Of a DNA stretch of 54,025 nucleotides, positions 36,001-39,000 are shown piece after piece (the stretch's first letter is position 1; each line of letters begins with the position of its first letter). Made by a program: the position numbers. The stretch is from a virus (lineage: Duplodnaviria; Heunggongvirae; Uroviricota; Caudoviricetes), in the IMG/VR virus record IMGVR_UViG_2526164690_000030. One strand, given 5' to 3'.

Positions 36001-39000
36001 ATTATTGATCGACAGAACATTGCCCGAATTCCAAATATCGGTGCAGTTGATCGTGAAGCGTTCGTTCTTGCGCGCATTAATCCAGTTTCAGTTGCTGCTG
36101 ACGGGTCCGTTTACATTGACGACTCTTTAACAACTTACAGCAAAAACAACTATCTGCGATTCCAGCATGTGTCTTCCTTGATGAACGCCATCGCCAGAGA
36201 TTTCTATGAAGTAGCTCAGGCGATTAAGCACGAACCGGATGGCATTACCAAAGAAACGCTAATGAAAGCAATGACTGAATTGCTTGACCGTTACGTTGCA
36301 GCCGGTGCGCTGGTTACTCCACGTGACAAGTCCCAGGGTGAAGATCCATATGTTGTTCAGGTTGTCCAAAAGGACATCGATCTGTGGGAAGTGTCCTGGT
36401 CTGTTTGTCCGACCGGTACAGCTCGCCGAATCGTCGGTAAGCCAATTCTGATGCGCTGATTTATAACCCCCGCTAAATGATGCGGGGGAGAGAGGTTTGA
36501 ATATGAAAAATTATACTGCTGATCCTTTTATGCGTGCGATTTTCGGTTCTGGCTGCTTTGAAAGCGGTGATAAATCCACGCAGGACAATAATGATAACGC
36601 CATGCTGGAAAGCGCAGGACAGAAAGGAAAGGACACTCAACCAAAGCCCAAAGACGACATTGAAACCGCGATGATGGAAGCGGTTGAATCCCGTGCACAA
36701 GGTGATATGCGCAGCCTGGCAGCTTCCATGCTTGCTGGTTGGGTTGAAGATGGTGATCCGGAGGCTGACTCATTTGATGCATTAGCAATCACTATGGCTG
36801 GCCTGGCTGATATCGATGAAGACACCGATTTCACCGATGAGCAAATCGATGCTTATAACGATGCTCTCGCAGCTCTTGCTGATGCAGCTGTTGCGCTTGG
36901 CGCTGATCAGGACGATGTAACCGAAATGATCGACGATGAAGATGACTCAGCTGCCGAACGTGTTTATGACGCTCTTTCCGAAAGCGACACCGACATGATG
37001 GAAACAGCTATTGCCATTTACACCGTTGCTGGTGGTGATAGCGCAATGCTGGAAGCGGTACGTAAAAAAGTGGTTCGTGATGGCAAGGTTACCATCATCC
37101 GTAAACGCCCGCGTCCTCGCCGCATGACGTCATTGCAAAAACAGGCGCTGAAAAAAGCACGCCGCAAAGCACATACATCCGTAGCGAATATCAACCGCAA
37201 AAAATCAATGCGCATTCGCAAAAAACGCGGTTTGTAAGTGACACAGGCCGCCTGCAAAGGTGGCCTCTACCTGGGAGAAATAGCGTTTGATTTGCGGCGC
37301 GATAATGCCTGACGGAATAAGTCCGTTAATGAAGGTTTATATCCTCTCTTCAGAGGATATGGTCGTCGGTTATATCGGTGAAGGATCTACCGCAGAACTG
37401 TCATCAATGTGGCAATCACCATTTGAAAACCAGTCAGTAGGAGGTTTGCTTGGCGGTATTAGCGCTGCGGCTGGCTCTCTTGCAGATACGCTTCAGACCG
37501 CAACCGGCGTAACAACAAAAACCCTCTTCAACTCAATGCTTGTTTGGGAAGGTCAGCAACCGCCTGAATTTAATCTGGTAATTGATTTCATGGCGACAGT
37601 GAATGCGCAACTTGAAGTGAACGCAGCCATTACAGCATTGCTGAAGATGGAATCGCCGGAACTGAACAATGTAGCGCCATTCGGTCGTCGCCCGGAGACA
37701 GTAACGTTAAACATAGGTAGGAACATAGCCCTTACCGACGTTGTTATCAAAAGCGTGAGTTACCAACTGGACGCCCCGCGCACACCGGAAGGCTATTTCA
37801 CTCATAACACGGTAACCCTGCAATGCAGCGGTAACACATCGATCAACCGTAGCAATATCTCATCTGTTTTTGTGTAGGAGTATTTATGTCCGGTTTTGCA
37901 AATACAAAAGCCGATATGGCCTTTCTAAAATCCCGGTTTAATAAAAACCTGGCTGCAGGCGAAAAACTTATTGGTTCTGAATATTGGATGACCATTAAGG
38001 GTTACGAACATCTGTCTGTACTAGTTCGTACAGCTCAGTTACCAGAAATGACACGTGAAGATGTGGAGGATTACGCCCCTGGTGGCATGAAATTCAACCA
38101 GCACGGACCATTACGCAACTCTGGTGAATTTCAGGTCACATGCGCGGAAACTATCGAAGGCGCAGTTCTCGCCGCTGTAAAACAGATGGTATACGGAAAA
38201 GAATATCTGGAAATTACCTTACAGGCGGCGGCTGAATCGAATAGCGGTAACCATAAAGGTCTGATCCGCACATATTCTCATTGCAAAGTGTATTCCGACG
38301 CCGTGGACTTCTCATCCGAAGACGTAACGGCGGTCGTTAAACCTTCCCTGCGCATTGTTTACAACTGGGCGGAATAATCCCTATCCCGCCCTTGTGGCGG
38401 GAACATCCTTGTTATTGAGTTGTAGGCAACAATGACACCAATTGAATTATTAGAAAGCGTTAAAGAGCGATTTAATCCGCTGCTTGTGCGTGAAGAAGAA
38501 ACGTTGAAAGCATTCCTGATCAAAGCTCTGACCACGTATCAGGACAGGGCAGGGGTAGTGAAAACGTTAAAACTTGAAAGAGCTGGTGGTACTGCAATCC
38601 CGTTGCCAGAAGATTATCTCTCTCTGGTTCATGTTACCGACAACAACGGCCTGTTGGTCTATTCGGATGAATTATCCGGCTTTATTGAATTAGAGCTAAC
38701 AGGTTCAGAACGCTGGCCTTTTCGAATGCTGTATCTGGTTAATCTACGCGACAGAAAGCTGGATGAATGGCAAGTGCCTCCTGCAATCATTGGAATGCTG
38801 GAGGAATATCTGGAGGCGCTTATCAACGTAAGAAATGTCGCCCGGCAGCGTAGAGCATCCATCGACGGGAAATTTGACTACTCCGATCTGCCCGATGAAG
38901 CCACGCTATATGCCCGCGTGCAGGAGATTGAGGAAAAAATGTCCTCAAACCGGGCCATTATTCCGGGGGCTACCATTTTTTAACGCTGGAGGCGCAGAGT

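Follow-up and report, generated by a model that had tools for sequence, protein, structure and literature searches.

Head-core proteins that are processed by a protease are a known kind of phage component. In T4, the protease gp21 cuts after L/I-x-E. It splits the core and scaffold proteins gp22, gp67 and gp68 into multiple pieces, most of which exit the head, and takes no more than N-terminal propeptides off the proteins that remain there; the internal proteins IPI-III are injected (PMC9026906). In herpesviruses, the C-terminal segment of the scaffold binds the major capsid protein and is removed by the maturational protease, which also cuts itself. In P22, a positively charged C-terminal helix-turn-helix of the scaffold binds the coat protein's N-arm electrostatically. 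Phage P1 is a classic model and stands as prototype for the P1/D6 phage-plasmids, which are widespread and in some cases carry resistance genes; its prohead protease is Pro. The maturation cut of the P1 capsid protein gp23, E120|S121, was mapped by Edman degradation (PMC9024508), and residues 1-69 of DarA are missing by cryo-electron microscopy (cryo-EM), a fragment of ~9 kDa being removed by Pro (PMC12810830). According to both recent structural papers on P1, a separate scaffold is yet to be identified. Here, we examine the product of an orthologue of P1 gene 21, a gene long known in that phage, which lies on the plus strand at 36503..37237 (244 amino acids plus stop) of a viral sequence of 54,025 nucleotides (IMG/VR record IMGVR_UViG_2526164690_000030), hereafter the window. 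The window comes from Escherichia phage D6 (MF356679.1), a 91-kb P1-like phage-plasmid, where the 100% identical protein (tblastn) is named D6_47. To judge from its sequence, D6_47 is very probably a substrate of Pro and would hence reside in the prohead. Further, we lean towards the view that the D6_47/P1 gp21 family consists of prohead-internal proteins of the core or scaffold type, which Pro cuts at multiple sites.

What is new in this proposal is the reassignment of gene 21 function to the head, the definition of the Pro motif and of its substrate set, and the apparent lineage-specific switches in protease specificity. The predicted substrate set, which held the capsid protein, Pro itself and DarA, would thereby gain gp21 as a fourth member.

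A bipolar protein with three predicted prohead-protease sites

The original prediction singled out this protein for a bipolar composition, and its acidic core and basic tail are real. A two-segment split by charge is best at residue 184, with a net charge of -36 for residues 1-184 and +24 for residues 185-244. The contrast amounts to 60, whereas 20,000 shuffles gave 17.5 +/- 4.9 and no more than 44, and it ranks first among the 118 open reading frame (ORF) segments of at least 100 amino acids in the window. Residues 56-185 contain 36 Asp/Glu versus three Lys/Arg (net -33), and residues 186-244 contain 25 Lys/Arg versus a single Asp/Glu (net +24, isoelectric point 12); the description of the C-terminus as almost entirely Lys/Arg was overstated, these residues making up 42% of the tail. 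P1 gp21 (YP_006524; 271 amino acids), which shares ~41% identity with D6_47 in tblastn, as do the gene 21 products of P7 and SJ46, and which likewise is encoded between sheath gene 22 and pmgG, keeps the acidic core and the basic tail but has a longer Pro/Gln-rich N-terminal linker. A profile match over residues 1-244 (E = 3.4e-85) places D6_47 in phrog_1053, a family of 'unknown function'. This family reaches far beyond the P1 group, with 496 representative clusters at E <= 1e-3 in a library of 1.8 billion proteins. In the ~40 members listed, the core has a net charge of -5 to -50 and the last 55 residues one of +12 to +28; the two exceptions are a fragment comprising the tail only and a protein extended at its C-terminus.

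The bipolar protein also carries a recurrent short motif. As the signature of Pro we used the strict motif M[LFMI]E[SA], with the cut M-[LFMI]-E|[S/A], which matches the Edman-mapped maturation cut of P1 gp23 (KAMLE|SVAAEM). The D6 capsid protein (P1 gene 23; 32610-34307, plus strand) reads KAMFE|SVAQSM at the position aligned to P1 gp23 E120|S121, with its maturation site at A118-M-F-E121|S122 (32961..32975, plus strand); in P1 DarA, the sequence DLLE68|A69 agrees with the missing residues 1-69. A six-frame scan of the window (39,957 amino acids) returned the strict motif four times, three of them in D6_47 and one in the capsid protein. In the D6 genome outside the window it occurs only in Pro (four copies, in the C-terminal half), in DarA (a single copy, EAMFE|SITTT, residues 63-66) and in one unannotated antisense frame. 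Across the annotated genes of the whole genome, the nine matches therefore belong to Pro (4), D6_47 (3), the capsid protein (1) and DarA (1). None of 200,000 composition-preserving shuffles of D6_47 reached at least three motifs (mean 0.03). The motif shares with that of T4 the form of a short hydrophobic-x-Glu signal, but differs from it in that P2 (L/F/M) and P1' (S/A) are also fixed; it offers a simple means to find other packaged proteins in P1-like phages.

The three predicted sites of D6_47 all lie on the plus strand. The first, A33-M-L-E36|S37 (36599..36613), shows the same motif as P1 gp23 (KAMLE|S), and the second is A56-M-M-E59|A60 (36668..36682). The third, A181-M-L-E184|A185 (37043..37057), lies exactly at the boundary of acidic and basic regions, which is the point of the best charge split. 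The residues E36, E59 and E184 are invariant across a 44-sequence alignment that has only 15 invariant columns in all. The third site is often doubled in relatives (ALMES-AMFE|AS, SLLDS...MLD|AVYRK). In P1 gp21 the candidate Pro sites are LME30|S, ILE87|A and LTE212|A, with an extra one, DLIE167|A, within the acidic core.

An AlphaFold2 model of D6_47, built on 44 homologues (mean predicted local distance difference test score, pLDDT, of 76), opens with a short N-terminal helix that is followed by a disordered stretch (residues 17-46, pLDDT <50). Six helices then span residues 51-176 (10-residue block means of pLDDT 77-92), and beyond a low-confidence linker (180-185) the tail folds into a beta-hairpin (188-199) and two helices (210-222 and 226-241). 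Sites 1 and 3 fall in segments predicted to be disordered, site 3 lying in the linker. Cleavage at all three sites would yield four fragments. The N-terminal segment (residues 1-36, 36 amino acids, net -3; 36503..36610, plus strand) has a conserved hydrophobic helix at residues 8-14, is disordered thereafter and ends at site 1; it is followed by residues 37-59 (23 amino acids, net -1). The acidic helical core (residues 60-184, 125 amino acids, net -32; 36680..37054, plus strand) has no internal site in D6, and the polybasic C-terminal module (residues 185-244, 60 amino acids, net +24; 37055..37234, plus strand) comprises the hairpin and the two terminal helices.

This polybasic module is the best-conserved part of the family in alignments. 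Two relatives, P0202 (408 amino acids) and P0259 (412 amino acids), have two copies of it, with the cut motif directly before the first module in P0259 and directly after it in P0202. P0259 additionally has an N-terminal Cys-rich segment resembling a zinc ribbon and a further C-terminal domain. Since the third site stands at the charge boundary and is often duplicated, and since a motif precedes the first module of P0259, the predicted processing seems to serve the release of the tail module.

Among the four motif-bearing proteins, the capsid protein and DarA are the documented Pro substrates in P1, and Pro would, by the precedent of the herpesvirus protease, cut itself. The pro genes (D6, L004:22494-23492, outside the window; P1, L007:14015-15034) encode proteins that match no Pfam or NCBIfam model and are labelled 'tail fiber protein' in PHROGs and RefSeq. 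Their C-terminal half is helical and holds 4-5 cut motifs of its own; the organization of Pro suggests a fusion of a protease with a scaffold-like domain, as in P2 gpO or herpesvirus UL26. A search for a basic tail on Pro, and one for an N-terminal capsid-targeting sequence common to D6_47 and the Dar proteins, found neither. The PmgS homologue D6_9 (L004:9085-10308), annotated in D6 as a 'putative prohead scaffolding protein', gave Pfam noise of the coiled-coil type and is without the strict Pro motif. In P1, a block was once labelled 'head structure and processing', but deletion of many of its genes reportedly has no such effect.

Predicted cut-site residues covary with the capsid maturation site across lineages

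At the three predicted cuts, the preceding residue switches in concert within the family. Of 252 members, 155 have (E,E,E), 29 have (D,D,D), three have (S,S,S) and one has Ala/Gly/Ala, with P3 and P2 staying hydrophobic and P1' staying Ala or Ser. We set the following test beforehand: the capsid column aligned to P1 E120 should be Asp in the Asp-type and Ser in the Ser-type phages. Nine Asp-type loci, taken from IMG/VR and Logan, have xLD|SA in their capsid protein at exactly that column, and the Ser-type contig L026 has NLLLS|SISE. Of the 22 genes of this contig, those for the capsid protein and the gp21-like protein are the only ones to contain [LMIF][LFMI]S[SA]. The other predicted Pro substrates of the Asp-type loci follow suit, with three or four LD|S/A sites in the C-terminal halves of the Pro homologues and LLD|S or ALD|A in the DarA-like proteins. 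Finally, P0140, the gp21-like protein of an Ala-type lineage, has MLA|S and MLA|A; these resemble the A|S sites of herpesviruses. The contigs available for P0139, P0140, P0212 and P0154 stop short of the capsid gene, so that the capsid comparison covers the Asp and Ser types.

Directly observed in silico are the motifs, together with their invariance and the covariation that links them to the other Pro substrates. Because the three conserved prohead-protease sites covary with the capsid maturation site, D6_47 very probably belongs inside the prohead and not in the tail, and the original prediction of an internal head protein is probably right. Comparison of the sequences in this series (loci L008, L014-L025 and L026; family proteins P0139, P0140, P0154 and P0178) further suggests switches between P1-like lineages in the specificity of the prohead protease, the residue that precedes the cut being Glu, Asp, Ser or Ala. 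Such a natural specificity series could serve to find the determinants in Pro.

A proposed core or scaffold-type role in the prohead

Beyond location, we propose a core or scaffold-type protein because D6_47 combines several sites, a basic two-helix C-terminal module and a predicted cut that detaches this module. The original prediction had favored an internal, possibly co-injected protein 'rather than a scaffold', which was unjustified: several protease sites are the pattern of the T4 core, and the C-terminal cut at a basic two-helix module has parallels in P22 and the herpesviruses. These parallels are of organization. No sequence or fold similarity was detected between D6_47 and the T4 core or internal proteins, and a cut at an acidic/polybasic junction, unlike the several sites along the chain, is not a described feature of the T4 proteins. 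In herpes simplex virus 1 (HSV-1), the M-site of VP22a/pUL26.5 is likewise a C-terminal cut that releases the scaffold from the capsid protein; however, the sequences are unrelated, the herpesvirus tail has 25 residues and is not polybasic, and the herpesvirus scaffold and protease share a reading frame, whereas the D6 genes are separate and ~27 kb apart. The P22 scaffold gp8 is also a helical protein, and the predicted D6_47 tail ends, as its does, in two basic helices. Nevertheless, no homology between the two was found, the D6_47 tail is far more charged (+24), and gp8 involves no protease, exiting intact to be recycled.

For incorporation into the prohead, the actual cleavage, copy number, anchoring partner and fate of the fragments, we envisage the following sequence of events. 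D6_47 would be expressed together with the capsid, sheath and tube proteins from one late operon, which points to a high copy number. A high-copy protein fits the place of the gene among those of the most abundant virion proteins and its presence in 79 of the 80 loci that were fetched via capsid-protein homology. In these loci it has a fixed place in the late morphogenetic operon, and the sole locus without it is a contig truncated 1.9 kb past the capsid gene; this is the distribution of a core assembly gene and not of an accessory counter-defence gene. The protein would be built into the prohead core with its polybasic module (hairpin plus two helices) as an anchor, the partner of which might be the inner face of the shell, the acidic domains of neighboring copies, or both. 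Activated Pro would then cut after E36, E59 and E184, at the M-[L/F/M]-E|[S/A] signal that also marks the capsid protein, DarA and Pro. The cut at E184|A185 would uncouple the -32 acidic helical domain from the +24 tail and so dissolve the network. Incoming DNA would then expel the acidic fragment, which might instead be retained, and the basic 60-residue peptide may stay on the shell or the DNA.

A bolder version, about which we are doubtful, sees in the P1 gp21 family a new class of head-core protein that acts as a protease-triggered electrostatic switch. Here, the -32 domain and the +24 tail would link copies head to tail and to the shell, the incoming DNA would expel the acidic halves once Pro has cut at the charge boundary, and the polybasic peptides would serve as a protamine-like counter-ion of the DNA and be injected with it. 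If true, this would supply the 'missing scaffold' of P1, and gene 21 would have been mis-assigned to the tail for ~40 years; the lineages would also form a natural series in which protease specificity (Glu, Asp, Ser, Ala) can be read from four co-evolving substrates.

Several points weigh against a core or scaffold-type role. P1 gp21 is neither in the 23-protein virion proteome obtained with liquid chromatography-tandem mass spectrometry (LC-MS/MS) nor among the proteins seen in whole virions by cryo-EM. From electron microscopy of amber mutants, P1 gene 21 bears the annotation 'baseplate or tail tube', and in all lineages examined the gene is flanked by those for the sheath and the tube linker. 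The cleavage of D6_47 at its three sites is itself only a prediction, and the acidic domain is modelled as six short helices and not as the long continuous coiled coil of some scaffolding proteins. Finally, scaffolding could already come from the 120-residue N-terminal domain of the capsid protein, the helical C-terminal half of Pro, or DarA/Hdf.

The first of these points calls for a closer look at the peptides. That gp21 is missing from P1 virions is compatible with a scaffold that exits the head, though it is not positive evidence of one. As evidence against a head location, we rejected the LC-MS/MS result, given that the mature product would yield almost no usable tryptic peptides. Trypsin leaves nearly all of the P1 acidic core in just two peptides (102 and 22 residues) and cuts the tail, with few exceptions, into pieces 1-7 residues long; of the five usable tryptic peptides of gp21, three span predicted cut sites. 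The supplement of the P1 proteome paper does not mention gp21. The exact cut sites and fragment masses are predictable from the motif, and the predicted processing would explain why trypsin-based proteomics is blind to this protein.

Possible alternatives: packaged effector, tail factor or DNA-condensing peptide

The evidence that places D6_47 in the head applies equally to a packaged and co-injected effector, an explanation we regard as unlikely. In this case, D6_47 would enter the head via its N-terminal segment or its basic tail, and Pro would trim it to the 125-residue acidic domain, with or without the basic peptide, which would act as a DNA mimic or as a nuclease decoy, like T4 IPI* against a restriction enzyme. 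As residues 60-184 have no internal site in D6, a single folded product with a charge of -32 would survive. This predicted mature domain is small, very acidic and helical, which likens it to the DNA-mimic anti-restriction proteins T7 Ocr and ArdA, and it resembles Ocr in size and charge; Ocr is not known to be packaged. P1-like phages do package anti-restriction proteins in their heads, namely those of the Dar system, of which DarA is cut by Pro at the same motif as the D6_47 sites. Similarly, the internal proteins of T4, which are injected, are stripped of N-terminal targeting peptides at sites of this kind. The negative virion proteome of P1 is uninformative on this count too, with the acidic core confined to the two tryptic peptides noted above.

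The specific idea of a DNA mimic or packaged anti-restriction protein, to which the original prediction had pointed, is not supported. A Foldseek search of the PDB with the structural model gave nothing at E <= 0.001, and no known DNA mimic, tube or baseplate protein is among the 50 matches listed; DNA-mimic folds are diverse. Foldseek matches in the PDB and BFVD were noise only (query-normalised TM-scores <= 0.23), and an uncharacterized protein of Bacillus phage SP-15 was rejected as a structural relative, the match being driven by composition (TM 0.16). Sequence and profile searches of the whole protein against Pfam, NCBIfam and the PDB returned nothing significant, and neither did Pfam scans of the tail alone and the acidic core alone. 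Further, the gene is universal and fixed in a morphogenetic operon, unlike accessory counter-defence genes with their patchy distribution, and the extra candidate site of P1 gp21, DLIE167|A, would cut inside the acidic core. A strongly acidic protein packed against condensed DNA would probably also be unfavorable, and we know of no anti-restriction phenotype attributed to gene 21. Given the universal distribution, the lack of a fold match and the extra site in the P1 core, the effector is less likely than an assembly role, and the original prediction was probably wrong to prefer a DNA-mimic cargo.

Decidedly improbable, in our view, is a tail morphogenesis factor, that is, a non-structural chaperone for the baseplate or tube that would hold tube or tape-measure subunits by charge and for which the protease-like motifs would be irrelevant. 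It takes its support from the P1 amber-mutant annotation and from the synteny of sheath, gp21, PmgG and BplB, which is kept in all lineages examined. Absence from virions fits a chaperone, and the basic tail could bind the tube lumen, which is negatively charged in P1. Yet such a factor would have no reason to possess three sites at which Glu, Asp and Ser alternate along with those of the capsid protein and, where examined, of Pro and DarA; prohead proteases act inside proheads. The D6_47 model is helical apart from one hairpin and not tube-like, which agrees with the absence of tube or baseplate proteins among the PDB matches listed. The synteny, in turn, cannot separate head from tail, the capsid gene lying two genes upstream in the same operon. 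A comparison with the lambda tail assembly chaperones gpG/GT, which are encoded between the tube and tape-measure genes with a programmed -1 frameshift, also fails on position, as D6_47 sits between the sheath and tube-linker genes; no search was made for a frameshift signal. The gene adjoining the tape-measure gene sit of P1 is pmgB and not gene 21, and the actual tube-like proteins are BplB, Tub and PmgG.

The gene 21 phenotype itself has a ready alternative source. The amber-mutant class reportedly goes back to Walker & Walker in 1983, with the label 'baseplate or tail tube' dating from that year. Database names such as 'tail tube protein' descend from this label, and the recent proteomic and whole-virion cryo-EM studies of P1 retain it. 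The classical phenotype could have arisen from polarity on pmgG and bplB, or from alleles that really lie in these genes; the two genes, which lack classical gene numbers, are today known to encode tube components. We also rejected as evidence the 'essential' call for gene 21 in the P1 CRISPR interference (CRISPRi) screen, where the knockdown is polar on the essential pmgG and bplB; its authors caution about polarity for genes upstream of essential ones. The labels 'tail tube' and 'baseplate' are unsupported for the D6_47 family, and the GenBank annotation of D6_47 reads 'putative baseplate protein, similar to P1 gene 21'.

A DNA-condensing internal peptide, in which the acidic domain would serve solely as an intramolecular chaperone, masking the +24 tail in the cytoplasm until Pro frees it in the head to neutralize DNA in the manner of an adenovirus core peptide, could appeal to the conservation of the tail, the predicted cut exactly at the charge boundary and the doubled, motif-flanked modules of P0202 and P0259, but it is very improbable as an explanation of its own, since by our estimate a few hundred copies would neutralize only a few percent of the DNA charge, and, DNA binding and virion retention of the tail being hypothetical, it is a sub-case of the core or scaffold-type role and not a true alternative.

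Gene start, operon and neighboring genes

The ORF was first reported from TTG 36497 to 37237 on the plus strand. Its stop and strand hold, but its start is likely ATG 36503, because a Shine-Dalgarno sequence, GGAGAGAGG, lies 7 nucleotides 5' of this ATG, because it is the start annotated in GenBank and because it fits the N-termini of the homologues. The wider Shine-Dalgarno region as read from the sequence (36484..36495, plus strand; GGGGGAGAGAGG) ends 7 nucleotides before the ATG.

On the plus strand, the gene order is capsid protein, a small ORF with an immunoglobulin (Ig)-like domain, sheath (P1 gene 22; 34801-36459), D6_47, PmgG, BplB, PmgC and Tub. The location in a virion gene cluster was thus correctly recognized at the outset, the capsid, sheath and tube genes being in the same operon, and the immediate flanks of D6_47, the sheath gene and the pmgG homologue, are kept in that order in distant lineages. 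A consensus scan of the plus strand from the capsid gene to tub found no promoter-like or terminator-like sites in the intergenic gaps; there were two matches in all, both within coding sequence. Since the sole late promoter of the corresponding P1 stretch lies upstream of gene 23, and given the absence of such sites from the gaps, the stretch from capsid to tub is a single mixed head-and-tail late operon.

Two G+C-rich hairpins without a T run bracket D6_47 on the plus strand. The first (36467-36488; -17.4 kcal/mol, z = -3.4) lies between the sheath stop and the Shine-Dalgarno sequence of D6_47 and was not called as a terminator. The second (37245-37266; -17.4 kcal/mol, z = -1.1) lies just 3' of the D6_47 stop and is not significant alone. 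They may be RNA-stability or translation-tuning elements in a long late operon.

By P1 cryo-EM, BplB is the tube, Tub the tube initiator, PmgG the tube-linking protein and PmgC the head-tail adaptor. PHROGs classes the D6 homologues of PmgG (37287-37877) and PmgC (38432-38983) as 'head and packaging / head morphogenesis', labels that the cryo-EM roles of a tube-linking baseplate protein and a head-tail adaptor render outdated. The ORF between the capsid and sheath genes (34455-34733, plus strand; 92 amino acids) encodes the Ig-like domain (phrog_215), and distant relatives have an ORF of 120-154 amino acids at this position; the ORF might encode a head decoration protein. The tail gene block is interrupted in its middle, between tub and pmgB, by an opposite-strand gene for a plasmid replication initiator of the Rep3 type (40088-40876, minus strand; PF01051/PF21205). 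The window also encodes a full-length homologue of class I aminoacyl-tRNA synthetases of the Glu/Gln type (25098-26759, minus strand; PF00749, E = 6e-130), and tRNA genes are also present elsewhere in the D6 genome.

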